Shown: positions 16,029 to 32,513, numbered from the stretch's first letter. The stretch is 38,610 nt of DNA from Gemmatimonadaceae bacterium (GCA_040003335.1 JBDUCS010000001.1:1-38610); one strand, 5' to 3'. The notes: a model not told the origin generated them from the letters alone. Numbers and translations are program-made.

Positions 16029-17318
16029 TCAGCGAGAGATCAAATCGGTGAGCATCTTCGTCACGCGCGGATCGTCCTTCTGCCCGAGCCAGAAGAGCGC
16101 TTTCTTGCGCATCTCGCGGTTCGCGTCGGTCCTCGCGATCGCCATCAGCTTGTCGACCGCCGCCGATTCGCTGCGCTGCGACAGCACGAAGATCAGGTGG
16201 TCCTTCACCTTTGGCTCCGTCGTCGCATCATAGGTACGCGCGAGGTCGGCGAGCGGCACGCCGCTCTGGCCGGCCCAGAAAAGCGCCTGGTTGCGCGCCT
16301 TGACCGTTTCGCGCTCGTCGGCGCCGACGGACAGCAGCCACCTCATCGCCTTGTCGTCGTGCGTCTGCGAGAGCGAGAAGAAGACGCGATCCTTGAGCGT
16401 CTCGCTGGTGAACCGCTTGTAACTCGACTCGAGGAACGCGACGTCGTCCGATGTCGGATCACCCTGGCTCAGGGCGAAGATCGCCTCACTCTTCACCTTT
16501 TCCGGCGTCGCGTCGGCCTCGATCATCGTGTGCAGCGCCTTCCGCGCCCGCGGGTCGTCGGCTTGGCCGAGCCAGAATGCCGCCTTGCCGCGCAGCGAAA
16601 CGTCGTCGGCGCCGTTCGCGATCTCGATCAGCGTCGTGACGCCGGCGCCGTCGGGCATCTGCGCCAGCGCGCTGACCGCGGCCTCGCGCAGTGATCGGTC
16701 GGCATCACCGGCCTTTGCCATCGCGGCGAGATTCGGCACTGCGGCCGGGCCGCCCGTCACGCCATACCAGAAGACGGCGCGGCGCCGCGTATCGCGCGGA
16801 CGATCGCCGTCGCGCGCCAGACGAAGAAAGCCGGGCGCAACCGTCGCGCTGTCGGCAATCGCCGCGGCGAGCATTGTCTCGCGCGCCGTGCGCGGCAGCT
16901 CGGCGCGGCCGGCCAGCGCGAGCATCGCCTGCGCCGCCTCGTTCGCCGGCACGGTGCCGAGGTCGGTGACGACGTCGCCGGACGACGCCGCGCCCCACGA
17001 GCCACCGACACGCGTGCGCGCCGCCGATAACTGGTGCCCGCTCATCGTCAGCTCGATGCGCGCGGGACCCGGTACGCATTGCACGCCCGACCAGCGGCCG
17101 TACGACTCCATCGACGGATAGATGTAGAGCACGTGCCCCATCGCCACCGTGTTCTTCGCATCGCCGCAGACGCCGGCGTGCGTCGCGTACGTCAGCCGCA
17201 CCACGCCATCGGGCGCCGATAGGATCCGCGACTCGACCGACTGCGCGGCGAGTCGCACGGCGAGAATGGTCATCGCCGCAGAGGCACGCAGCACGCAGTA
17301 CGCAGTGGGATGTCTCAT
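16029..17318 (-). CDS. Secreted HEAT-like repeat protein (429 aa) with N-terminal two-Cys domain
   Basis: ORF 16029..17630 trimmed to the ATG at 17318, which overlaps the upstream TGA (ATGA). The signal-like ASAAMTILAVRLAAQS is followed by HAGVCGD ... CVPGPARI ... VTDLGTVP. About 8 repeats with FW.GQ / FALSQ signatures. An alternative start at 17273 is possible. Confidence 0.8.
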   Translation of the reverse strand: MRHPTAYCVLRASAAMTILAVRLAAQSVESRILSAPDGVVRLTYATHAGVCGDAKNTVAMGHVLYIYPSMESYGRWSGVQCVPGPARIELTMSGHQLSAARTRVGGSWGAASSGDVVTDLGTVPANEAAQAMLALAGRAELPRTARETMLAAAIADSATVAPGFLRLARDGDRPRDTRRRAVFWYGVTGGPAAVPNLAAMAKAGDADRSLREAAVSALAQMPDGAGVTTLIEIANGADDVSLRGKAAFWLGQADDPRARKALHTMIEADATPEKVKSEAIFALSQGDPTSDDVAFLESSYKRFTSETLKDRVFFSLSQTHDDKAMRWLLSVGADERETVKARNQALFWAGQSGVPLADLARTYDATTEPKVKDHLIFVLSQRSESAAVDKLMAIARTDANREMRKKALFWLGQKDDPRVTKMLTDLISR

Positions 17319-18979
17319 TGGTTGATCAGCTCCAGCAAGAGCGTCTTCACGCGCGGATCGTTCGACTGGCCGAGCCAGAAAATCGCCTTCTTGCGCAGCT
17401 CCTTGTTCTGCTCGTGCTTCGCGATGTCGATCAGCTTGTCGGCGGCAGAGGACTCGCGCCGCTGCGAGAGCGCGAAGATCACTTGCTCCTTGATCTCCTG
17501 CTCCTTGAGCCCGTCGTACATCGCCGCGATGTCGCCGACCGACGTGCGTTTCTGCTGGCCGAGCCAGAAGATCGATTTCTTGCGCACCTCGAGCGGCTGC
17601 TTCGCGTCGGCGACCAGACCGACGAGCCACTTCCGGTCGTCCTCATTGCCGTTCTGCGCCACACCCATAATGACCTTCTCGCGCAGGTCGTCGCTCGACA
17701 GCTTGGTGTACAGCTCGCGAAGGAACGCCGAGGTCTCCGGCGAGCGGCGGCCGTTGCCGATCCAGAAGATCGCCTGACCGCGCAGCTCCTCGGAGGTGCC
17801 GTTCGACATCGCGAAGTCGCGCAAGAGCTGTTGCGCCCGCGGACTCTGGTGCTGCGACAGCGCGAAGATCGCTTTGTCCTGCAGCTGTGCGTCCTTCGAG
17901 TTGTGGAGCACCGAGTCGAGCGCGGCGAGCGTGCGCTCGCTCGGCACCTGCGACATCCAGAACACCGCGTCGCCACGCACGTCGCCGTCGGGATCGCGTC
18001 GTGCGACATCGAGCAGAATGTCGGCGGTCTCGTCGCTGTGCTTCTGCGCGACGAGGAAGACCGCCTTTTTGCGCAGCGGCTGCGAGCACTCGTCGCGCCG
18101 CGCCAGCACCGTCTTGAGAATCGGGAGCGCGCGCTCGGCGTCCATCTGCATCAGCGCGTTGAGCGCGGCGACCCGCACATCATCGTCGTCGTCGCCCGAC
18201 GGGCAGCCGGCGCTCGCGCTGCCACCGCGCCCACGGCCCTTCCCTTCACCGCGCCCCTTGCCCGTCGCCTGTTCGGCGACGTTCTCGGCGGCGCTCGCGT
18301 CGCCCTGCTTGGCGAGCGCGCCCTCGACACGCGTCAACAGCACGCCGGCGTCGCCGGCGACGGTCGCCTTAGCATGACGACGGCGCAGCGAGCGCAGCAC
18401 GTCCGTGGCGGTGCGCAGATTGTCTTCATCACCCGTGCGGAAGAGCGCAAAGGCCTCGAAGTACATCGCGTCGGCCGCGTACTGCGACTGCGGGTAGCGC
18501 TCGCTCACGCGATGAAAGAGCTCGGCCGCGCGCTTGAAGTCGTCGCGGTTGAGCGCCTCGCGCGCCGCGCGGTACAGGGAATCGGCCGGATCGTCGGGAT
18601 GCCGCTCGACGCGCGGCAGCCGCACCCGTGCGCCACGCGCGCCCATCCCACCGAAACCGCTGATGCCACTGAGCCCGCTCCACCCACTCAGCCCACTGAG
18701 CCCGTCGCCGATCGCGCCGAGCGACTCGAGCGACGAGAGGGACTCGAGCGAGGAGAGCGAGGAGAGCGAGGAGAGCGAGGAGAGCGACGAGAGGTCGACT
18801 GCCTGGGCGAGATCGCCGAGCGATGCGAGCTGCTTCAGGCTCGCCAGGTCGAGACGGCTGACATCGGCGCCGAGCCGCTCGGCCGCGCGCGCCAGATCGT
18901 CGACGCGAACGGTGCCACGTTGCGCCGGCATCGGCGTCGCGAGTGTCGCCATCGCGGCGACGAGATAGAAGGTCTTCAT
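17315..18979 (-). CDS. Secreted protein (554 aa): Ser/Leu low-complexity region, TPR-like segment and about 9 HEAT-like repeats
   Basis: Signal peptide MKTFYLVAAMATLATPMPAQ. GGGAGAG lies upstream of the ATG at 18979. The TPR-like segment YRAAREALNRDDFKRAAELFHRVSERYPQSQYAADAMYFEAFALF is followed by repeats carrying AVFWMSQ, AIFALSQ, SIFWLGQ, VIFALSQ and AIFWLGQ. Confidence 0.85.
   Translation of the reverse strand: MKTFYLVAAMATLATPMPAQRGTVRVDDLARAAERLGADVSRLDLASLKQLASLGDLAQAVDLSSLSSLSSLSSLSSLESLSSLESLGAIGDGLSGLSGWSGLSGISGFGGMGARGARVRLPRVERHPDDPADSLYRAAREALNRDDFKRAAELFHRVSERYPQSQYAADAMYFEAFALFRTGDEDNLRTATDVLRSLRRRHAKATVAGDAGVLLTRVEGALAKQGDASAAENVAEQATGKGRGEGKGRGRGGSASAGCPSGDDDDDVRVAALNALMQMDAERALPILKTVLARRDECSQPLRKKAVFLVAQKHSDETADILLDVARRDPDGDVRGDAVFWMSQVPSERTLAALDSVLHNSKDAQLQDKAIFALSQHQSPRAQQLLRDFAMSNGTSEELRGQAIFWIGNGRRSPETSAFLRELYTKLSSDDLREKVIMGVAQNGNEDDRKWLVGLVADAKQPLEVRKKSIFWLGQQKRTSVGDIAAMYDGLKEQEIKEQVIFALSQRRESSAADKLIDIAKHEQNKELRKKAIFWLGQSNDPRVKTLLLELINQ
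18748..18792 (-). repeat. In-frame 9-bp tandem repeat (gcgaggaga: four perfect copies plus one imperfect) encoding an SLS/SLE run
   Basis: Read directly on the + strand. On the coding strand it gives SSLSSLSSLSSLSSLESLSSLESL. Confidence 0.85.
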
Positions 18980-18993
18980 GGTCGTACTCTCCC

Positions 18994-19809
18994 TCAGCTG
19001 CCCACCGGCACGCGGCCGGCGGGGATGGTCGTACGAATGCGAGTCAGGACGTCGTGTCGGCTGATGGCCTGCTCGATCAGGTCGAAGTCAGTGGTGTCGC
19101 GAATGCCCCCGGGTCCGGGGAGACGCGCGATCTGCGCGAGCACGAGCTCGAGATCGCCGAGGAGCCGCTTGAGCTGCGGGTCGTCGCCGGCCGGCGAGTC
19201 GAGCAAGAGTTGCGTGTTGCCCAACAGGTCGCGGGCCCACTTGGCGACGTGCGCGTCGATCTGTCCGGCGCGCGCGTTGGAGCGGACGGTGGTGAGGAGC
19301 GCCTCGGTCTGCCCGAGATGCTGGAGCGTGGCCAAGCGGTACGGCAGCGCCGCGGCCGCGTCGATCTCCACGGGCGTGCGTTGGTCGACGCTGGAGACGA
19401 CGCGCTGCTCGCCGGCGCGATCGGTGCGCGGAGAGCGCGTGCCGGTCGAGTAGTCGTTGGGCACGTTCGGCGCGTGTGGCGCGCTGGACGTGGCAGTCCT
19501 CGTGCCGCGCGTCGTGCCGGCGCCCGTCGCGACGCTCGGCGTCGCGATCGCTCCGCCGGTCGACCGCCGGCCGAGCGCCACGCCGATCGCCAGCATCGCG
19601 GCCATGCCGGCGGCGATCGCCGTCCACCGCAGGAGGTGCGGGCGGCGCGCGCTCGCGATCGGCACCACGGTCGCGCCGCGCTGCGCGCCGCGCGCCGCAT
19701 CGATGCGCGCCCACATCTCGGCGCGCGGTGTCGCCGGCGGCGCGTTGTAGTCGCGCGCGGCGATGCGAAGGAAGTCGTCGAATTTGTCGTCGTTCTGTGT
19801 GTCGCTCAT
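18994..19809 (-). CDS. Single-pass anti-sigma factor (no zinc-binding motif) with helical periplasmic domain
   Basis: ORF 18994..20142 trimmed to the ATG at 19809, which overlaps the sigma gene TGA (ATGA). One TM segment, LLRWTAIAAGMAAMLAIGVAL. The position immediately after an ECF sigma gene supports the call. No HxxxCxxC motif seen. Confidence 0.7.
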   Translation of the reverse strand: MSDTQNDDKFDDFLRIAARDYNAPPATPRAEMWARIDAARGAQRGATVVPIASARRPHLLRWTAIAAGMAAMLAIGVALGRRSTGGAIATPSVATGAGTTRGTRTATSSAPHAPNVPNDYSTGTRSPRTDRAGEQRVVSSVDQRTPVEIDAAAALPYRLATLQHLGQTEALLTTVRSNARAGQIDAHVAKWARDLLGNTQLLLDSPAGDDPQLKRLLGDLELVLAQIARLPGPGGIRDTTDFDLIEQAISRHDVLTRIRTTIPAGRVPVGS

Positions 19810-20348
19810 GATGCCCACTCCCCGGCGAAATCGGCCAATGCGTCCCGCAGCTTGGCCCGTGCCCGCGACAACTGCGCCTTGCTCGTCCCTTCTTGGACGC
19901 CGAGCGCCGTCGCGATCTCTTCGTGCGTGTAGCCTTCCACGTCGTGCATGATGAACACCGTTCTGTAGCCATCGGGCAGCGCGTTGATCGCTTGCCGCAG
20001 CCGCACCTTCAAGTCCGGCTCGGCACGCCGCGATACGCCCGTCACCGCGTCGGCCGCGGAGATGTCCGTCTCGCGCGCGTTGATCCGCTTCACTTTCTTG
20101 AGCGCGTTGAGCGTCACGCTCGCCGCGATCGTGTGCATCCACGTGCCGAAGCTCGAATCGCCGCGAAATTCATCCAGCCGTCCGAACGCGCGAACGAACG
20201 CGTCCTGCGTGCACTCCTGCGCCAGCGCATCGTCGCCCGTGAGCCGAAACGCGAGGCGGTACACGCGGTCGACGTGCGTGTCGTAGAGCTCGCGTTCGGC
20301 CGCCGCGTCGCCGGAGCGAACGCGCGCGAGCAGGAGGTGTTGATCCAC
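19806..20348 (-). CDS. ECF (group IV) RNA polymerase sigma-70 factor
   Basis: 180 aa with a GTG start. Region 2: ERELYDTHVDRVYRLAFRLTGDDALAQECTQDAFVRAF. Region 4: LPDGYRTVFIMHDVEGYTHEEIATALGVQEGTSKAQLSRARAKLR. Confidence 0.9.
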   Translation of the reverse strand: MDQHLLLARVRSGDAAAERELYDTHVDRVYRLAFRLTGDDALAQECTQDAFVRAFGRLDEFRGDSSFGTWMHTIAASVTLNALKKVKRINARETDISAADAVTGVSRRAEPDLKVRLRQAINALPDGYRTVFIMHDVEGYTHEEIATALGVQEGTSKAQLSRARAKLRDALADFAGEWAS

Positions 20349-24471: not shown

Positions 24472-25410
24472 TCACCGCCGCCTCCCACTCACTAATTCCT
24501 TCATCACATTGGCCGACATGAACGCGATGTTCGCCGGACGCTCGGCGAGCCGCCGCATCAGGTACGGGTACCATTGCGTGCCGAACGGGACGTACACGCG
24601 CATGCGATAGCCGTCGCGCACCAGGCGGTCCTGCAGGTCACGCCGCACGCCATAGAGCATCTGGAACTCGTAGCGGTCGGGCGTGATCGCGCGCTCGGCA
24701 ACGAACCGGCGTGCTTCGGCGATGATCGCTTCGTCATGCGTCGCGAGGGCCGGATAGTTGCCGTCGCTCATCAGCGTTTGCATGCAGCGTACGTAGTTCG
24801 CGTCCACGTCCTTCTTGTCCGGATACGCGACCGTCGCGGGCTCCTTGTACGCCCCCTTGCACAAGCGCACGCGGCACTTGAGATGGATCGCGCGCTCGGC
24901 GTCGGCTTGCGTGCGATAGAGATAGCTCTGCAGCACGATGCCGACGTTCTCCGGATACGCCGGGTACAGCCGGTCCTCGAACATCCGCAGCGTGCGCTCG
25001 ACGTACTCGCTCGACTCCATGTCGAGCCGCACGAACGTGCGGTACTGCCGCGCGCGCTCGAGAATGTCGTGCATGATCTCGGCGCACAGATCCTCGCTGA
25101 TGTCGAGCCCCATCGCCGTCAGCTTCACCGAGACGTTCGCGTCGAGCTTCCGCTCGGCGATCCGGTCGAGCATGAAGAGATATTCGCGAGAGGCCGATCG
25201 TGCCTCGCCCTCATTGTGCACGCTCTCGCCGAGCAGGTCGAGCGAGGCGCTGATGCCGCGCTTGTTCAGGGCCTGCACGGCGGCGAGCGCCTCCTCCAGC
25301 GTTTCACCGGCGACGAATCGCGACGCAAACTTCTTCGCCATCGCGTTGTTGCGGATGAAATGGAAGATCTGCTGCTGGTTCGAGAGAAAGAGAAGCGTTT
25401 GACGCAGCAT
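24472..25410 (-). CDS. Proline dehydrogenase (monofunctional PRODH)
   Basis: 312 aa. FVAGETLEEALAAVQALNKRGISASLDLLGE, VSVKLTAMG, and the C-terminal QMLYGVRRDLQ..L...GY.MRVYVPFG..WYPY.MRRLAERPAN are canonical PutA-PRODH barrel motifs. Confidence 0.9.
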   Translation of the reverse strand: MLRQTLLFLSNQQQIFHFIRNNAMAKKFASRFVAGETLEEALAAVQALNKRGISASLDLLGESVHNEGEARSASREYLFMLDRIAERKLDANVSVKLTAMGLDISEDLCAEIMHDILERARQYRTFVRLDMESSEYVERTLRMFEDRLYPAYPENVGIVLQSYLYRTQADAERAIHLKCRVRLCKGAYKEPATVAYPDKKDVDANYVRCMQTLMSDGNYPALATHDEAIIAEARRFVAERAITPDRYEFQMLYGVRRDLQDRLVRDGYRMRVYVPFGTQWYPYLMRRLAERPANIAFMSANVMKELVSGRRR

Positions 25411-27066
25411 CTATCGGCTCGCCTGCGGAATGCGCCATACAGGAAACTCGCCGCCTTTCTTCACGTCTCCGTCGAAGAAATTCCAGGTAACCAGGCCATC
25501 ATCGCTCTCCGGCTCGAGCAGGTAGAACGCGACAAGCCCCAGCGGTTGCGCGGTGTCGACGATGAAGGATCCGGCCGGAATCGCGCGCCGCTCGGTGCGC
25601 CAGTTTCCGGTGAGCGACACCTCGCGATGTCCCTGAAATGCACGAGGCGATGACCGCACGGAGTCGATCGAAAAGATTTCCGCGTCTGTCGACATCGCGC
25701 TCGCCGGATGCATCTGCACGCCGTGGAGCCGCAATACCCGCAGCGCAGCCGTGTCGCTCGCAGGGATGACGTACGACGCCGGCACCTTTCTCCTGAGCGT
25801 CGTGGTGAAGACATCGTAGACCGGCATCACCACCGGCGTGATGCGCTTGGTGCGCCGAAAGCCGCGGCGCACGCCGGGCTCCGTTCGATGCGTCGTGTCG
25901 GTGACGCGCTCGAGCTGTTCGACGAGGACCGCTTCGCTGTGTGACGGCCCTGAAAGCGCGGCACGCAGCTCGACGCCGCTCTCCGCGAAGGTGAGCCGTT
26001 GCTCGAGCGCAACGAGCGCTTTTTGTTCAAGCGTCCTCCGAGCGATTTGTTCCGCTGAGAGCGACAGAATTTCGCGCACGAAATCGTACGTCGCCTTGAT
26101 CCGCGTCTCGAACGGATCGTGCGAGTACGCTTCACTCAAGATCGAGACCTTGCTCCGCAGCCCGACATAGTTCGTTCCGTAACGCGGCAGATGCTCGTAA
26201 CTGTGCCATCCCTTCGGCGCCGGGTCCTGCATCGAGGCGAACTCGCGATCGAAGTTGCCGTAGTCGAAGACCTCCGTCTTGTGCCGGTCGCGCATCCGCT
26301 GGCGTAGCGTCTTGAGCAACTCGCGTGTGTAGTCGCCGAGCGGCGCCGCGGGGCTGAGCGACGGTGAGTACGTCAGTGCGTAGCCGTGGTAGCTCCCGTC
26401 CGTCGTATGCAGGTCGACGAACACATCCGGATCCCACGCGGTCAGTGCGGCGAGCGACATGCGCGTCTCGGGCGCCTCGGCCTTGACGTAGTCGCGATTG
26501 AGATCGAGCCCCTGCCCGTTCGGACGCTGGCCCACGAGCTCCGGCCCGTTCTGCTCGGAGCGATTGCGCTCCTGCGGTGCGAATTTCTCGTTGCCATCGG
26601 CGTTGTAGATCGGCACGACGATCAGCACGATCGAGTCGAGAATGCCGGGGGACGGCTGCGCGCTCACGTCGCGCATCATCTCCAGCATCGCCTCCTTCCC
26701 TTCGACTTCGCCGGCGTGGATGTTCGCCTGCACGTACACGATCGGCCGGCCGAGCCGCCTGGCGAACTCCGGCGTCGTCGCCACCGGTCGTGATAGGACG
26801 ACGAACGGGATCGCGCGCCCCTCGGTCGACGTCGCGAACGACGTGTCCCAGAGCGGCGACTTCCGAACTTTGAGCGAGTCGATGAACGCCCGTACGTCCG
26901 TGTAACGCGACGTCTCGAGGTAGTTCGTGCGCTCGGGCCGGGTCTGCGGCAGCTTGCGGCCGGCGAGCTCCGTGCGCCGCTCGATCCCCTGCTGCATCGC
27001 GCATGCGCCGAGCGTCACGAGGAGCGCCGAGCCGGCGAACAACGTCATCTGGTGCCGCTGAACCAT
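25411..27066 (-). CDS. M14 family zinc carboxypeptidase, lipoprotein
   Basis: 551 aa with lipobox LVTLGAC. The Zn motif region VQANIHAGEVEGKEA matches the HxxE of M14. The TAG stop directly abuts the PRODH ATG. Confidence 0.82.
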   Translation of the reverse strand: MVQRHQMTLFAGSALLVTLGACAMQQGIERRTELAGRKLPQTRPERTNYLETSRYTDVRAFIDSLKVRKSPLWDTSFATSTEGRAIPFVVLSRPVATTPEFARRLGRPIVYVQANIHAGEVEGKEAMLEMMRDVSAQPSPGILDSIVLIVVPIYNADGNEKFAPQERNRSEQNGPELVGQRPNGQGLDLNRDYVKAEAPETRMSLAALTAWDPDVFVDLHTTDGSYHGYALTYSPSLSPAAPLGDYTRELLKTLRQRMRDRHKTEVFDYGNFDREFASMQDPAPKGWHSYEHLPRYGTNYVGLRSKVSILSEAYSHDPFETRIKATYDFVREILSLSAEQIARRTLEQKALVALEQRLTFAESGVELRAALSGPSHSEAVLVEQLERVTDTTHRTEPGVRRGFRRTKRITPVVMPVYDVFTTTLRRKVPASYVIPASDTAALRVLRLHGVQMHPASAMSTDAEIFSIDSVRSSPRAFQGHREVSLTGNWRTERRAIPAGSFIVDTAQPLGLVAFYLLEPESDDGLVTWNFFDGDVKKGGEFPVWRIPQASR

Positions 27067-27169: not shown

Positions 27170-28300
27170 TCAGCGAACGACGATCACGCCTACCGTTCCG
27201 TCGAAGCCGTCCGCAAACGCGGGGACGCCGGGCGGCGCCATCCACTTGCCGCCGTCGATGCGGATGGAGACGTGGTACGTGCCGGGCGTGATCGGCATCA
27301 GGAGCGACCAGTGGCTCCCGTCGGCCCGGGCGAGGGGCACGGGCTTCCAATCGGTGAAATCGCCCATCAGCTCCACGCGCGCGGCGCGCGGTGCATCGAC
27401 GCTGAAGTTCGAGTCGCCGTGATCGCCGGCGCCGAGCACGAAGGGACGCTGCTCGCGCGAGTGCTCGCGCGGCAGCACGCGACGCCGCTGCGCGCGAAGC
27501 CCGAGCCGCACGCCGAACGAGATCGTCGTTCCCGAGAGAAGGCCGCGCGTCGGATCCTCGGGCGCGCGCGCGAGCACTCCGACGAGCGCGGCGTGCGGCG
27601 CGAGCCACCACGCGCTGGCGAGCGAGCCCCAGCCGTTGAGCGCGCTCTGCGTCGTCGCGGTCCGCGCGCCGCCGGCCAGATCGACATCCACGCGCGGCCC
27701 CGACCACTGCAGCGCGCCGCCGACATCCGTGAAGGCATCGCGCGGCACGGGGAACTCGCCGCCGCGCAGCTCGAAGCGCGTGTGCGTCATGGAGAGGGTG
27801 ATCGTCGCCGAGCCCGCGCGGCGCCAGGCGCCGAGCCCACCGAGCACGATCTCACCCGCCGCGTCGTCGCGTCGCGCGTGGCCAAGGCCGCCTTCGAGCC
27901 ATAGACCGCCCTCTTCCTGATAGATATGCGCCCTCGCCACGCCGAGCTGCTGGCCCACCCGGAAGTGGTCCGCCGAATATCCGTCGGCGCCGCCGGCCAT
28001 CTCCCCGGCGACGCGCGCCGAGCGGATGGAGAGCGCCGGCGTGAATGCCGAACCGCCGACAAACCACTGCACGCTCGACGCGCCCTGCGCGAGCGATGCG
28101 ACCGATCCGCCCGCGTCGACCGTCGCGAAGTTGCGCTGATACCGGACCGACGGCGCGAGCACCGCGCCGCCAACCGCCGCGCCGCCCGCGTACTGCGTTC
28201 CGATCACGCCGGCCTCGACCGAGGGTGATACCTGCGCCGCCGACGGCGCGGCGAGCGCCGCGGCGGCGAACGCGATCGGAGCGGCGCGGCGGGATCGCAT
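27170..28300 (-). CDS. Secreted envelope protein: Gly/Ala-rich beta-like N-region plus C-terminal CBM48/AMPK-beta glycogen-binding-like domain
   Basis: 376 aa with signal peptide IAFAAAALAAPSAAQ. The C-terminus RVELMGDFTDWKPVPLARADGSHWSLLMPITPGTYHVSIRIDGGKWMAPP matches the GDF..W ... PG.Y.....DG.W pattern. The ATG abuts the upstream TAA. Confidence 0.75.
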   Translation of the reverse strand: MRSRRAAPIAFAAAALAAPSAAQVSPSVEAGVIGTQYAGGAAVGGAVLAPSVRYQRNFATVDAGGSVASLAQGASSVQWFVGGSAFTPALSIRSARVAGEMAGGADGYSADHFRVGQQLGVARAHIYQEEGGLWLEGGLGHARRDDAAGEIVLGGLGAWRRAGSATITLSMTHTRFELRGGEFPVPRDAFTDVGGALQWSGPRVDVDLAGGARTATTQSALNGWGSLASAWWLAPHAALVGVLARAPEDPTRGLLSGTTISFGVRLGLRAQRRRVLPREHSREQRPFVLGAGDHGDSNFSVDAPRAARVELMGDFTDWKPVPLARADGSHWSLLMPITPGTYHVSIRIDGGKWMAPPGVPAFADGFDGTVGVIVVR

Positions 28301-28954
28301 TTACGGCGACCGCGGCCTGCCGCTCGAGGTGAGTCCGGTCGTCGCCGGCCCATCGGCGGCCGCGCCGCCGACGACGCCCTGCGTGCGAACGGCGGCCGCG
28401 ACGACGAGCGGCGCGCCCGCGACGATGTCGCGCGCGACGTCGCGGCGCAGCGCGTCGAACGCATCGTCACCGGCGCGCGAGTTCGCGACGCGCAGAATGA
28501 GCTTCGACGCTGTATCCGCCGGCACGCCGCGCGCCACGATGTCGGCGAGCACGACGAGCGCGACGGCCAGCGCCTCACGCGGACGCGCCGCGCGCATCTT
28601 CGCGAGCGTCACCGGCTGCACGCCGGCCTGCAACGCGGCCGCGCCGGCGACGAGATCGGCCTGCGCCGCGGCCGGCCCGAGCGCGGTGCGCGCCGCGTCG
28701 AGCCGCGCGGCGAGCGCGCGCACGGCGACGACGATGCGGGCCCCGTCCGCACCCTTGCTCGCGCCCTCGAGCGCCTTGGCCGTCAGCGGCTCGGCCGGCA
28801 GTCCTTTGTCGCGCGCCGAATCGACGAGTGCGGCGACGGCTGCGCGCGTCGCCGGGTCGAGCCGCGCATCGAGCTGCTGCTGCGCCGCGCCGGCGCGCAC
28901 GCCGAGCGCGACGAGGGCGACGAGCGCGAGCGCCGGAATTCGCGCGCGCTTCAC
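28301..28954 (-). CDS. Secreted Ala-rich hypothetical protein (217 aa)
   Basis: Signal peptide IPALALVALVALGVRAGAAQ. The GTG start overlaps the anti-sigma TGA (GTGA). No recognisable family. Confidence 0.6.
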   Translation of the reverse strand: MKRARIPALALVALVALGVRAGAAQQQLDARLDPATRAAVAALVDSARDKGLPAEPLTAKALEGASKGADGARIVVAVRALAARLDAARTALGPAAAQADLVAGAAALQAGVQPVTLAKMRAARPREALAVALVVLADIVARGVPADTASKLILRVANSRAGDDAFDALRRDVARDIVAGAPLVVAAAVRTQGVVGGAAADGPATTGLTSSGRPRSP

Positions 28955-29517
28955 GAACCGCCCTTCCCGATCAGCACCACGGAGTTGCTCGACCCGAACT
29001 CGTCAGCCGGCGCGCTGGCCGCCGTCGGATCGGACACCCAGGTCCGGCCGTCGATGATGAATGCGTACTCGTGCCGACCCGGCGGGATCGCGACCTCCAC
29101 CGACCAGACGCCGGCGGCGGCGGGCTTGAGCGGCGTCGTGTCGCGGTTCCAGGCATTGAAGTCGCCGACCAGCGCGACCGACGTCGCGCGCCGCGCCACG
29201 TAGACGAACTGCACGCGCTGCGCGCCGGCGCTGGCGGCCGGCACCGCCGCGGGCGCGCGCGTCGGCGCGGTGCGCAGCTCGCGTCCGGCGATCACGGCAA
29301 TGACGATGGCGGCCGCGGCCAGCGCACCGATCGGCTGCACGCGAACGAGCCTCGGCCGGACGAGCCATCTGACCAAACCGCCTTGACGCCGCGGCGACTC
29401 GGCGGCCCGGACGGCGGACATCACGCGCGCGCGCGCCGCGGGCATGGGAGCGGGCGGCTCGCGCAACGCCGCGGCGACCTGCGCGATCAGCGCATCGTCG
29501 TATCGCTCGTCAGGCAC
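28951..29517 (-). CDS. Anti-sigma factor with periplasmic CBM48/AMPK-beta-like domain
   Basis: Start chosen at GTG 29517, which has GGGAGG 6 nt upstream. The ORF track start at 29541 is the alternative. One TM segment, IGALAAAAIVIAVIAG. C-terminal domain: SVALVGDFNAWNRDTTPLKPAAAGVWSVEVAIPPGRHEYAFIIDGRTWVSDP. Confidence 0.75.
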   Translation of the reverse strand: MPDERYDDALIAQVAAALREPPAPMPAARARVMSAVRAAESPRRQGGLVRWLVRPRLVRVQPIGALAAAAIVIAVIAGRELRTAPTRAPAAVPAASAGAQRVQFVYVARRATSVALVGDFNAWNRDTTPLKPAAAGVWSVEVAIPPGRHEYAFIIDGRTWVSDPTAASAPADEFGSSNSVVLIGKGGS

Positions 29518-30049
29518 TCGGCACCTCCCGCAACAGGTCACGCAGCCGCGCGCAGGCGCGCTGCACGCGCATCTTGAGCGCCGAGACTCCGACGCCGGTC
29601 ATCACGCTCATCTCTTCGTAGCTCAAGTCTTCCACGTGCTTGAGGAGAAACGCCTCTCGTTGCTCGGGAGCCAGCAGCACCAGCGCGCGCGCGAGCTCCT
29701 CGCGAAATCCATCCCACACCACAGCCGGCGCGGCCGCCGTCGCCATCATCTCCTCGCCAGCTACGATCACTCGCTCACGCACGCGGCGTCGCGCCGCCGT
29801 CGTGCGGCAGCGGTTGACGAGAATTCGAAAGAGCCAGGCGCCGAACCGCTCGCGGTTTTCGTAGCGCCCGAGCGATCGATAGGCGCGCACGAAGGCATCC
29901 TGCAGCGCCTCCTCCGCATCCTCCCGGTTGCCGAGCATGTTCACCGCGAAGCGCGCATACCGATCGTAGTAGCGCGCGACCAACAACGCATACGCCTCCG
30001 TATCCCCGCCGAGCACGCGCTGGATGAGAGCCGTGTCCGGAACTTCCAT
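29510..30049 (-). CDS. ECF (group IV) RNA polymerase sigma-70 factor
   Basis: 179 aa. Region 2: LLVARYYDRYARFAVNMLGNREDAEEALQDAFVRAY. Region 4: APEQREAFLLKHVEDLSYEEMSVMTGVGVSALKMRVQRACARLR. Confidence 0.9.
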   Translation of the reverse strand: MEVPDTALIQRVLGGDTEAYALLVARYYDRYARFAVNMLGNREDAEEALQDAFVRAYRSLGRYENRERFGAWLFRILVNRCRTTAARRRVRERVIVAGEEMMATAAAPAVVWDGFREELARALVLLAPEQREAFLLKHVEDLSYEEMSVMTGVGVSALKMRVQRACARLRDLLREVPSA

Positions 30050-30125
30050 ATAGAGCTAACTCTCGTTGCGGGTACTGGGTCACGCCAGCTCTCGACACTG
30101 GCTTTCCGTTCGCACTTCAGTACCG

Positions 30126-30188: not shown

Positions 30189-32513
30189 ATGGATCTCCGG
30201 GAGCGCCTCCAGTCCGCGTTCGGCTCGCAGTACACCCTCGACCGCGAGATCGGGCGTGGGGGGACGGCGATCGTCTTCCTGGCCGAGGACGCCAAGCATC
30301 AGCGCCCGGTCGCGCTCAAGGTGCTCGTCCCCGAGCTCGCGAGTGCCGTCGGCTCGGACCGCTTTCTCCGCGAGATCAAGCTCGCGGCCCAGCTCACGCA
30401 TCCGCACATCTTGCCGCTCCACGATTCGGGAATCGCGAACGGCATCCTCTACTACGTCATGCCGTTCATCAACGGCGAGTCGCTGCGCGAGCGGCTCGAG
30501 CGCGAGCGGGAGTTGCCGGTCGACGACGCGATCCGCCTCGCGTGCGAGATCGCCGGCGCGCTCGATTACGCGCACAAGAAGGGCGTCGTGCATCGCGACA
30601 TCAAGCCGGAGAACATCCTCCTCGCCGGCGACCACGCGATGGTGCTGGACTTCGGCATCGGCAAGATGATCAGCGCCGCCGCCGAGACGACCTCGATCAC
30701 CGCCAGCGGCGTCACGATCGGCACGCCGGCGTACATGTCGCCCGAGCAGGCGGCCGGCGAGACGTTCCTCGACGGACGCAGCGACATCTACAGCCTGGCG
30801 ATCATGCTCTACGAGATGCTTGCCGGCGCGCCGCCGTTCACGGGCGCCACGGCGCAGGCGACGATCGCCGCGCGCTTTGTTCAGGCGGTGCGCCCGATCC
30901 ATCCCATCCGTCCAGAGGTGCTCGAGTCGACCGACCAGGCGATTGCGATTGCGCTCGCCACCGCGCCCGTCGACCGCTACTCGACCGCCGCCGAGTTCTC
31001 GCGCGCGCTGCGCCAGCGGCCGCCCGGCGGGCAGACGCCGACGTACTCGACGGCGATCGGCTCGGAACCGCGGCCGTCGGGGTCGTCCTCTGTCACGCCG
31101 GAGCCGCGACGCGCGCCGGCGCTGCGGTCCATCGCCGTGCTCCCGTTCACGAACATCAGCCCCGACACCGACACCGAGTATCTCTCCGATGGCATCACCG
31201 AGGAGCTGATCAACGCGCTCACGCGCCTGCGCGGCATCCACGTTGCCGCGCGCACCTCGGCGTTTGCCTTCAAAGGGAAAAACCTCGATCTGCGCACCGT
31301 CGGCGAGAAGCTCAACGTCCGCATGGTGCTGGAGGGGAGCGTGCGCCGCGCCGGCAACCGGCTGCGCGTCAACTGCCAGCTGACGAACGTCGCCGACAAC
31401 TACAACGTCTGGTCGGATCGCTACGACCGGCAGATCGAGGACGTGTTTGCGATCGAGGACGAGATCTCGCGCGCGATCGTCGACCACCTCAGTATCACGG
31501 TACTCGGCGAGCCGGAGACGTCGGGCCCGCGCCGCGCGGAGAATTTCGAGGCGTACGATCTCTACCTGAAGGGTCGGCACTACTTCAACAACGGCAGCAT
31601 CCGGCACGCCCTCGACTCGTTCGAGCGCGCGGCGCGCCGCGATCCGAAGCTCGCCAAGTCGTACGCCGGCATCGCCGACTGCTACTTCGCGCTTGCCAAC
31701 CTGTCGTACCTCTCGCCGCGCGAAGGGTACGAGCGCGCCCGGTCGGCCGCGCAGCGCGCGCTCGAGCTCGACGATTCGCTGGCCGATGCGCACGCGGCGA
31801 TGGCGATCATCAAGTGCTACTACGATTGGGATTGGCCCGAGGCGCAGCGAGAGTTCGAGCGTGCGCTCGCGCTCAATCCGGGTCTCGCCAACGCGCGCTA
31901 CTTCTACTCGCTCGCGCTGAGCTCGCACGGCCGGCCCGCCGAAGCGCTCGAGCAGGGCGAGCGCGCGATCGAGCTGGATCCGGTGAATACGCACATCTAT
32001 ACGGGCGTCGCGCGAGCGCATCTCGTGACGCACCGCTACGCCGAAGCGCTGGACGTGCTCTCGCGCTCGCTCGAGCGCGGGCAGGACGTGAGCGCGACGC
32101 ACGCCTGGATGGCGGTGGCGCACCTCGAGCTCGGCAGCCACGACGCGGCGATGACGGAAGCGAAGCGCTCGCTCTCGCTCGCCGAGATCCCGATCTACGT
32201 CGCGCTTCTTGGCTACGTCAGCGCGCGCGCCGGTCGCCGCGAGGAAGCGATGCAGGTGCTCGCATCGCTCTCGGCGCGCTCAAACGACGTGGCCGTCTTC
32301 CAGGCGTGGGTCTACGTCGGCCTGGGCGACAACTCGCTCGCCCTCGACTGGCTCGAGCGTGCGTACGAAGAGCGCTCCGACTGGCTCGTCATCATCGCCG
32401 CCCTCCCCGTCTGCGACCCGCTGCGACGGGAACCGCGCTTCACGTCTTTGGTCGCAAAGCTGGGCATCGAGCTGAGCGCGAACATTACGATCACGTCCGA
32501 ACATAGAACGTAG
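30189..32513 (+). CDS. Ser/Thr protein kinase with TolB-N-like periplasmic module and TPR repeats
   Basis: Hanks kinase motifs: GRGGTAIVF, VALK, HRDIKPENILL, DFG, GTPAYMSPEQ. The block SIAVLPFTNISPDTDTEYLSDGITEELINALTRL follows, and then TPR-like repeats run to the C-terminus. Confidence 0.9.
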   Translation: MDLRERLQSAFGSQYTLDREIGRGGTAIVFLAEDAKHQRPVALKVLVPELASAVGSDRFLREIKLAAQLTHPHILPLHDSGIANGILYYVMPFINGESLRERLERERELPVDDAIRLACEIAGALDYAHKKGVVHRDIKPENILLAGDHAMVLDFGIGKMISAAAETTSITASGVTIGTPAYMSPEQAAGETFLDGRSDIYSLAIMLYEMLAGAPPFTGATAQATIAARFVQAVRPIHPIRPEVLESTDQAIAIALATAPVDRYSTAAEFSRALRQRPPGGQTPTYSTAIGSEPRPSGSSSVTPEPRRAPALRSIAVLPFTNISPDTDTEYLSDGITEELINALTRLRGIHVAARTSAFAFKGKNLDLRTVGEKLNVRMVLEGSVRRAGNRLRVNCQLTNVADNYNVWSDRYDRQIEDVFAIEDEISRAIVDHLSITVLGEPETSGPRRAENFEAYDLYLKGRHYFNNGSIRHALDSFERAARRDPKLAKSYAGIADCYFALANLSYLSPREGYERARSAAQRALELDDSLADAHAAMAIIKCYYDWDWPEAQREFERALALNPGLANARYFYSLALSSHGRPAEALEQGERAIELDPVNTHIYTGVARAHLVTHRYAEALDVLSRSLERGQDVSATHAWMAVAHLELGSHDAAMTEAKRSLSLAEIPIYVALLGYVSARAGRREEAMQVLASLSARSNDVAVFQAWVYVGLGDNSLALDWLERAYEERSDWLVIIAALPVCDPLRREPRFTSLVAKLGIELSANITITSEHRT

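Follow-up and report, generated by a model that had tools for sequence, protein, structure and literature searches.

The minus strand of a 38,610-nt stretch of DNA from a Gemmatimonadaceae bacterium (GCA_040003335.1 JBDUCS010000001.1:1-38610; this whole stretch is called the window, and coordinates without a locus name refer to it) carries four consecutive open reading frames (ORFs) between positions 27170 and 30049. The question raised by this locus is whether the extracytoplasmic function (ECF) sigma factor encoded there and the three envelope proteins encoded behind it belong to one signalling system and, if so, how such a system would work. In the order of transcription, gene 1 (29510-30049) encodes the ECF sigma factor of 179 amino acids (aa), gene 2 (28951-29517) a putative single-pass anti-sigma factor of 188 aa, gene 3 (28301-28954) a predicted secreted all-alpha periplasmic protein of 217 aa that belongs to an orphan family, and gene 4 (27170-28300) a predicted outer-membrane protein of 376 aa. 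A first-pass annotation of the window had described the locus as a tightly coupled ECF operon with a carbohydrate-binding domain of the CBM48 type on both gene 2 and gene 4, and had proposed a relay like that of FecI/FecR/FecA without a TonB-dependent transducer. Our analysis showed that the four-gene arrangement is conserved across the phylum Gemmatimonadota, far from what chance would give. Whether the four genes constitute a conserved, Gemmatimonadota-specific envelope-signalling module built around the ECF sigma factor is a more demanding claim, and we consider the chances for it to be about even.

The reading frames and all three junctions of the described operon agreed with the sequence. 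Third-position G+C content is high in all four ORFs, as it is for real genes in this genome (approximately 68% G+C). The ORF of gene 2 can be read as 28951-29541 (196 aa) or, from the start at 29517, as a protein of 188 aa. We take 29517 to be the right start, because the homologues of gene 2 align from this position onward and because the gene 2 called in the locus of a close relative (L001) likewise shares 8 nt with its sigma gene. With this start, genes 1 and 2 share an 8-nt overlap, GTGCCTGA, at 29517-29510 (read from the sequence), in which the GTG start of gene 2 (29517-29515) is followed by the TGA stop of the sigma gene (29512-29510), so that the sigma gene stops inside the beginning of gene 2. 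The stop of gene 2 and the start of gene 3 have a GTGA in common at 28954-28951, and the TAA stop of gene 3 (28303-28301) directly abuts the ATG of gene 4 at 28300. The four genes are translationally coupled.

To survey the arrangement, an alignment of gene 3 was scanned against one genome per GTDB species, which gave 233 confirmed matches, and 80 loci were kept, all of them from Gemmatimonadota. Hidden Markov models (HMMs) of the four proteins were then built and searched against every ORF of these loci. All four genes were present in 70 of the 80 loci; nine of the ten incomplete loci are cut by a contig end, and in the remaining one genes 3 and 4 were merged by the ORF caller. The check on co-occurrence suggested by the first-pass annotation therefore came out in favour of its operon. 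The order sigma factor, anti-sigma factor, helical protein and barrel was found in 55 loci, with one further locus scored as having genes 3 and 4 transposed, and six more loci have the standard order followed by a fifth gene behind the barrel gene. A cyclic permutation with the barrel gene in first place was found in eight GTDB loci and in two additional ones (L004 and L005). The fifth gene (L013:5823-6560, L040:3690-4466, L041:4234-4956, L049:7803-8561, L058:3280-4140 and L082:6648-7373) is a distant paralogue of gene 3 (E of about 1e-18 to 1e-23 against the gene 3 HMM), and it is preceded by its own ECF-type promoter motif in five of the six loci, the exception being L058. Some genomes carry two copies of the module. 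The protein families are large. A word-index search with gene 4 returned 11 proteins, and a profile search returned a large family with 896 full-length representatives at 50% identity (E <= 1e-30), while gene 2 homologues form at least 1739 clusters and gene 3 homologues at least 524, of which every named one is a hypothetical protein of Gemmatimonadota. Five relatives of gene 4, with identities down to about 28% and including metagenome loci, all adjoin genes for a sigma factor, a CBM48 protein and a gene-3-like protein. In public databases the module proteins are named "hypothetical", "isoamylase early set domain-containing", "glycogen-binding domain-containing" or similar.

Gene 1 encodes a sigma factor of the ECF type (group 4) with regions 2 and 4 only. 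It showed matches to Sigma70_r2 (residues 23-89; 2.4e-15), Sigma70_r4_2 (residues 116-169; 1.7e-13) and Sigma70_ECF (4e-6) in Pfam, and scored 76.8 bits against a cut-off of 42.9 with the NCBIfam model TIGR02937 (sigma70-ECF). Together with the conserved linkage, these matches bear out the earlier description of the locus as an ECF operon. An identification of gene 1 as SigE, SigW, SigM or another named factor was rejected, since all matches to NCBIfam equivalog models were far below their cut-offs. The main text of an ECF classification paper (PMC7826278) contains no mention of Gemmatimonadetes or CBM48; an unnamed, computationally defined ECF group may already include this sigma factor.

Upstream of the sigma gene, a motif of the form GTGAC-N16-GGGT[CTA][TA] was found at a fixed position in 64 of 81 loci. 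The spacer is 16 (or 17) nt, the -10 element takes the form GGGTCT, GGGTAT or GGGTTA, and in one clade TTGAC replaces GTGAC with the spacing unchanged. The strict motif matched 99 times in 856 kb, compared with one to six matches in shuffled sequence. The presence of this conserved promoter motif before the sigma gene implies that the operon is autoregulated via a GTGAC-N16-GGGTCT promoter. The first in-frame start codon lies 7-9 nt past the -10 hexamer in 45 of 60 loci, and the start codon is GTG in 42 of the 60. Such a gap leaves no space for a ribosome-binding site; therefore, the mRNA of the sigma gene and its operon is probably leaderless, with transcription starting at the sigma start codon. 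The putative autoregulated ECF-type promoter of the window spans 30057-30083 on the minus strand and is composed of GTGAC (30083-30079), a spacer of 16 nt and GAGTTA (30062-30057), followed after 7 nt by the ATG at 30049. The close relative L001 has GGGTTA where the window has GAGTTA. Four loci (L083:4560-4680, L069, L070 and L034) have short repeats in tandem, such as runs of GACCCC/GACCCT or inverted blocks of GCACGCAGCA, immediately before the ECF promoter.

About 30 loci have the motif a second time, on the other strand and 40-100 bp before the sigma promoter (examples, annotated as minus-strand features, are L047:4776-4803, L076:4905-4932, L084:4823-4849, L013:2748-2775 and L043:4788-4814); the window has no such opposite-strand copy. 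These copies precede genes for lipoproteins with DUF4382 (which share a conserved LLTDAPFPFDS motif and in some cases have CarboxypepD_reg or Big_1 domains), for a DUF4397 lipoprotein, for a serpin lipoprotein and for a secreted protein of 505-527 aa that has no Pfam match. Judging from the position of the motif, the genes behind it are likely members of the regulon. The permuted loci differ among themselves in their promoters. In L004 and L005, the ECF motif precedes the barrel gene that heads the operon, and in seven loci ordered barrel, sigma, anti-sigma and helical protein it lies between the barrel gene and the sigma gene. In six inspected loci (L018, L022, L025, L030, L035 and L062), the barrel gene has a housekeeping-type promoter of its own, TTGCCA-N17-TATATG, which fits a constitutive partner of the system rather than a mere output. 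The barrel gene of the same six loci has a GGAGAG Shine-Dalgarno sequence, unlike the adjacent leaderless ECF-driven genes.

Gene 2 lies directly downstream of the sigma gene in all loci. Its translation and profile matches give good support for an inner-membrane protein that crosses the membrane once, with some 60 residues in the cytoplasm and a CBM48 domain in the periplasm. The predicted cytoplasmic segment (residues 1-60; 29338-29517) ends in an Arg-rich stretch before the transmembrane helix (about residues 61-78, QPIGALAAAAIVIAVIAG; 29284-29337), a hydrophobic segment that is followed by a variable Ala/Pro linker and then by the CBM48/AMPK-beta-CBM domain (about residues 98-183; 28969-29226). 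This domain scored 38.7 bits with AMPK1_CBM (cut-off 26.8) and 38.6 bits with CBM_48 (cut-off 22.4), with E values of about 1e-9, and the two models matched 23 of 23 homologues. A profile built from these 23 members matched the AMPK beta-1 CBM structure 1z0n in the PDB at 1.4e-11. The cytoplasmic part is conserved in the pattern D..I.R.A.ELR.PV..DP..DARVMAAV and contains no Cys or His motif, the HxxxCxxC zinc motif having been considered. The NCBIfam model NF052375 ("anti-sigma factor") matched residues 19-111 weakly (E = 0.0019; 18 bits against a cut-off of 100), and the family profile matched no solved anti-sigma structure among all PDB sequences. The public names of gene 2 proteins are "isoamylase early set domain-containing", "glycogen-binding domain-containing" and "hypothetical", and none of them is anti-sigma.

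Gene 3, which had been annotated as secreted, indeed carries a signal peptide, without a lipobox. No relatives of it were found in Pfam, NCBIfam or the PDB sequences. An AlphaFold2 (AF2) model based on 33 homologues has ten helices with a mean predicted confidence (pLDDT) of 86.7. In the sequence, three similar units of the form G-[LV]-P followed by helix-turn-helix can be made out by eye. A comparison with PDB folds gave nothing significant, and the only matches were de novo designed helical repeat proteins with E > 0.1. The tail of the protein (28301-28400) is predicted to be disordered, is rich in Pro, Gly and Thr, and ends in [RK]-[KR/S]-P, with the terminal Pro kept in at least 90% of the aligned sequences. 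This conserved C-terminus might serve as a peptide that is recognised by, for example, a PDZ protease. The model thus gives good support for a soluble periplasmic helical protein.

The N-terminal region of gene 4, which the first-pass annotation had left unclassified as possibly beta-rich and membrane-associated, is predicted with good confidence to be a beta-barrel. The protein has a signal peptide (residues 1-22), a predicted 14-stranded barrel (residues 23-267; 27500-28234), a disordered linker of low confidence (residues 268-287) and a CBM48-like beta-sandwich (residues 288-376; 27173-27439). The overall pLDDT of the AF2 model is 80.6, and the barrel blocks are mostly at 81-94. In a Foldseek search against the PDB, the best 50 of 191 significant matches were outer-membrane barrels or engineered derivatives of them, the best being OmpG (E = 2e-7; target-normalised TM score 0.57-0.61), followed by CymA. 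Both OmpG and CymA are 14-stranded monomeric channels, and gene 4 is 8-9% identical to them. In 46 diverse members of the family, the barrel region was not covered by any Pfam model. The predicted turns are 2-8 residues long on the periplasmic side and the extracellular loops 2-10 residues, and the large insertions seen in homologues map to the predicted extracellular loop L5 (alignment columns 222-280), which fits the predicted topology. Because the number of strands is even, both ends of the barrel would be periplasmic, and with them the C-terminal CBM48 domain. This domain scored 25.8 bits with CBM_48 (cut-off 22.4) and 24.1 bits with AMPK1_CBM, just below the cut-off of 26.8, and the CBM models matched 44 of 46 homologues. 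Since the score passes the CBM_48 cut-off in both gene 2 and gene 4, and since the models also match nearly all of the homologues, the CBM48 assignment of the first-pass annotation withstood the profile searches. The barrel-like N-region and the conserved gene order likewise spoke for its account of the operon rather than against it. We regard a 14-stranded outer-membrane barrel with a periplasmic C-terminal CBM48 domain as well supported by the model. The short loops make a role of the barrel as an outer-membrane anchor, or as a reporter of the state of the envelope, more likely than one as a receptor on the cell surface.

Within the window, the CBM48 domains of gene 2 and gene 4 share 35% identity across 81 residues (E = 8e-12), and either of them resembles the other lineage more closely than it does the generic models of Pfam. 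Among 62 complete loci, the identity within a lineage is 0.54 for the anti-sigma domain and 0.43 for the barrel domain, and the identity between the two is 0.299 within the same locus and 0.291 between different loci. Gene conversion or a recent duplication of the pair was rejected on this comparison. The nearly equal values within and between loci indicate that the domain was duplicated once, long ago, and that both copies have been stably kept ever since, the two lineages being ancient paralogues. Characterised CBM48 and AMPK-beta CBM domains bind alpha-glucans. The residues of the AMPK beta-1 CBM (1Z0M/1Z0N) that contact the sugar, W100, K126, W133, L146, T148 and N150, include two tryptophans that stack on sugar rings, W100 and W133. 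The equivalent of W100 is kept in 62 of 62 sequences of each lineage and that of W133 in 47 of 62 anti-sigma domains and 55 of 62 barrel domains, and the position of L146 is occupied by an aromatic residue (Phe) in place of Leu. Binding of a glycan by these domains is possible.

The combination of parts invites comparison with known systems, and in its presumed way of working the module comes closest to FecIRA-type cell-surface signalling or to the RpoE-RseABC envelope stress operon. FecI/FecR/FecA shares with the module the joint encoding of an ECF sigma factor, a regulator that spans the membrane once and a barrel of the outer membrane with an additional periplasmic domain, and the periplasmic domains of barrel and regulator would meet in one compartment. 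However, FecA has 22 strands and a plug, whereas the module barrel has 14 predicted strands, no plug, no TonB box and tiny extracellular loops; its extra domain is C-terminal and of the CBM48 type, and a periplasmic helical protein is present as a fourth component. Membership in the FecIRA type was rejected, as no TonB-dependent receptor, plug, STN or FecR domain was found and the barrel has 14 predicted strands; the absence of matches to TonB_dep_Rec, Plug and STN agrees with the earlier statement that a TonB-dependent transducer is lacking. The proposed FecIRA-like relay is thus only partly supported: the architecture, the shared periplasm and the conservation hold, and the relay itself stays a proposal, while extracellular loops of 2-10 residues argue against a FecA-like surface receptor.

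The rpoE-rseA-rseB-rseC operon resembles the module in being a four-gene autoregulated operon with an ECF sigma factor, a single-pass anti-sigma factor and a periplasmic accessory protein, and in being tied to the state of the outer membrane. Genes 2-4, in contrast, have no sequence or fold relation to RseA, RseB and RseC, and, unlike the rpoE operon of Proteobacteria, the module encodes an outer-membrane protein that shares a domain with the anti-sigma factor. No RseA_N/RseA_C, MucB_RseB or RseC domain was found in the downstream genes, and membership in this system was rejected. An RsgI-type match was also lacking, which excluded that type. In SigI/RsgI of Clostridium thermocellum, a single-pass anti-sigma-like protein carries an extracytoplasmic carbohydrate-binding module, as gene 2 does (PMC6582324, PMC10328401). 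Unlike in the module, however, SigI is not of the ECF group and the organisms have a single membrane, and RsgI differs from gene 2 by its own N-terminal domain, its autoproteolytic periplasmic domain, binding modules from other CBM families and cellulosomal enzymes as targets. We place the module outside FecIRA, RpoE-RseABC and SigI/RsgI because their defining domains were searched for and not found. OmpA is similar to gene 4 in having a signal peptide, an even-stranded barrel, a flexible linker and a periplasmic binding domain; it differs in having 8 strands rather than 14 and an OmpA_C/peptidoglycan-binding domain rather than a CBM48-like one, and gene 4 has no match to a Pfam outer-membrane protein family. 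The CBM48 domains themselves resemble CBM48 and the AMPK beta CBM in profile matches beyond the Pfam cut-offs, in a PDB match at about 1e-11 and in the equivalents of both sugar-stacking Trp residues. Unlike usual CBM48 domains, they would be periplasmic and are attached to a membrane anchor or a barrel instead of a GH13 enzyme or a kinase scaffold, and the equivalents of K126, T148 and N150 are not kept. The literature searched contains no description of the module or of anti-sigma factors with CBM48, and the main texts of the ECF classification papers do not mention the module.

If the four genes do form an envelope-signalling module, it could work as follows. At rest, the sigma factor would be kept at the membrane by the few cytoplasmic residues of gene 2. 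In the periplasm, gene 3 and the two CBM48 domains, of which one belongs to gene 2 and the other is anchored in the outer membrane through the barrel, would make up a sensing assembly. Its parts might touch one another directly or might be held together by a single glycan of the periplasm or the cell wall that is bound to the aromatic platform (W100 and W133 equivalents). Envelope changes, such as loss or alteration of the glycan, a different membrane spacing or mis-assembly of the barrel, might disturb this assembly and expose the anti-sigma factor to regulated proteolysis. The freed sigma factor would then transcribe its own operon and, in many species, also the divergent genes for envelope lipoproteins (DUF4382, DUF4397 and serpin). 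Beyond the co-location of the parts in the periplasm, we infer every step of this scheme.

Several observations weigh against an envelope-signalling module of this kind. No zf-HC2, RskA or other anti-sigma domain was found in 23 gene 2 members (Pfam, E <= 1), and the anti-sigma label of gene 2 is therefore given by position, coupling and topology; binding of the sigma factor is likewise something that we infer from position and topology. No protease gene belongs to the module. The AF2 structures were built on shallow alignments of 11 and 33 sequences. Distance matrices of the two CBM48 domains show a partial correlation of 0.27-0.55 (mirror-tree), which is non-specific and expected of co-inherited genes, and a contact of the two CBM48 domains with each other, or of one of them with gene 3, is a hypothetical part of the relay. 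The equivalent of K126 is replaced by Ala or Asn, that of T148 is variable or Gly, and that of N150 is kept in 38 of 62 anti-sigma domains and is Val in the barrel domain; the polar sugar contacts are thus not conserved, especially in the barrel domain, which makes glycan binding uncertain. Finally, the -10 element of the window departs from the consensus (A in place of G) and falls below the threshold of the position weight matrix (PWM), so that this promoter was assigned by its position and by comparison with L001, and when the whole window was scanned with the PWM for other target promoters, the matches did not rise above chance level.

A bolder version of the signalling module can also be formulated, which we offer tentatively and consider rather unlikely. 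It would be a phylum-wide trans-envelope device in which the outer-membrane barrel and the anti-sigma factor communicate via their paralogous CBM48 domains, bridged by the helical protein or by a shared glycan. What such a device gauges would be how intact or how widely spaced the envelope is, or else a polysaccharide associated with the cell wall, and under its control would stand an autoregulated ECF regulon of envelope lipoproteins with a leaderless architecture. Its anti-sigma factor would also carry a sigma-binding domain of a new, very short class.

The surroundings of the operon are less constant than the operon itself. A gene for a Ser/Thr kinase with C-terminal TPR repeats (774 aa; 30189-32513, plus strand) is divergent from the sigma gene, with only 139 bp between the two; it is also present in L001 and is absent beside more distant loci. 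Downstream of gene 4 lie genes for an M14 carboxypeptidase (25411-27066, minus strand) and, behind it, a proline dehydrogenase (24472-25410, minus strand). The neighbourhood of L001 is the same except for an additional gene, for an S9 peptidase, that lies between the barrel and M14 genes, and the other loci differ. A scan for consensus sigma-70 promoters and terminators, and the predicted RNA fold of the 3' intergenic region, gave nothing exceeding the background. The other ECF sigma factor of the window (19806-20348, minus strand) belongs to a different group (1e-21 against the HMM of the module sigma factor), and downstream of it, with another gene in between, a HEAT-repeat protein with a YfiO/TPR-like region is encoded (554 aa; 17315-18979, minus strand).

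The strongest alternative to a signalling role of all four proteins, although in our estimate still unlikely, is that genes 3 and 4 are outputs of the sigma factor and not sensors. The barrel with its CBM48 domain would then be an OmpA-like tether to a periplasmic or cell-wall glycan and gene 3 an accessory protein or chaperone, both being no more than the regulon members with the tightest linkage to the sigma gene, and the CBM48 domain of the anti-sigma factor would monitor the polymer independently. The OmpA-like layout of gene 4 (an N-terminal barrel with minimal extracellular loops and a C-terminal periplasmic binding domain) suits such a tether, the commonest gene order puts genes 3 and 4 behind the autoregulated promoter, and the other targets of the motif are envelope proteins as well. 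However, the linkage is strict (80 of 80 loci), even at about 28% identity of gene 4, and ordinary regulon members are rarely kept in this way. Moreover, in the six inspected permuted loci the barrel gene has a separate housekeeping-type promoter upstream of the ECF promoter, and the paralogous domains on the anti-sigma factor and the barrel have been kept since before the family diversified, suggesting a shared function.

Sensing and uptake of a nutrient glycan is improbable. In this case the barrel would be an oligosaccharide channel, and imported alpha-glucans would bind the CBM48 domains and switch on the sigma factor, comparable to RsgI/SigI or to the ECF/anti-sigma pairs of polysaccharide-utilisation loci. 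The sugar channels OmpG and CymA are indeed the best fold matches of gene 4, but at 8-9% identity the match to OmpG mirrors the number of strands and not the sequence. Similarly, characterised CBM48 and AMPK-beta CBM domains bind alpha-glucan and the aromatic platform is kept, but the polar sugar-binding residues are lost. The loci also have no conserved glycoside hydrolase, sugar transporter or other carbohydrate-utilisation neighbour, the neighbours being variable (Ser/Thr kinase, peptidases, proline dehydrogenase), and the genes that bear the motif encode DUF4382 and DUF4397 lipoproteins and a serpin but no catabolic enzymes. The idea that gene 2 is no anti-sigma factor but a membrane-anchored glycan-binding protein, with the sigma factor controlled otherwise (for example by the neighbouring Ser/Thr kinase or by transcription only), could draw on the lack of a detectable anti-sigma domain in the gene 2 family, on public annotations that never say anti-sigma and on the divergent kinase in the window and L001, but it is likewise improbable given that gene 2 follows and overlaps the sigma gene in every locus, has the classic topology, with one transmembrane helix between a short N-terminal part in the cytoplasm and a domain in the periplasm, keeps a cytoplasmic motif that would be odd for a mere membrane anchor and matches NF052375, albeit weakly (E = 0.0019, residues 19-111), and given that the kinase is not a conserved neighbour elsewhere.

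ECF sigma factors represent the third large mode of signal transduction in bacteria, and the inputs of most of their groups are unknown. New ECF groups without a known input are common, and Gemmatimonadota are an abundant but poorly studied soil phylum. Paired CBM48 domains, an orphan partner protein and a clean leaderless promoter make the present module unusually well defined and testable, although its regulatory context has been hidden by annotations such as "hypothetical" and "isoamylase early set domain". The module would add CBM48 as a candidate sensor domain, which is not described on ECF anti-sigma factors in the literature searched. It would also add an orphan periplasmic protein family, a new predicted outer-membrane barrel family with a periplasmic CBM48 domain, and a well-defined promoter motif with a probably leaderless architecture. 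If the two CBM48 domains do communicate, the module would provide these bacteria with a TonB-independent route by which information passes from the outer membrane to the cytoplasm.

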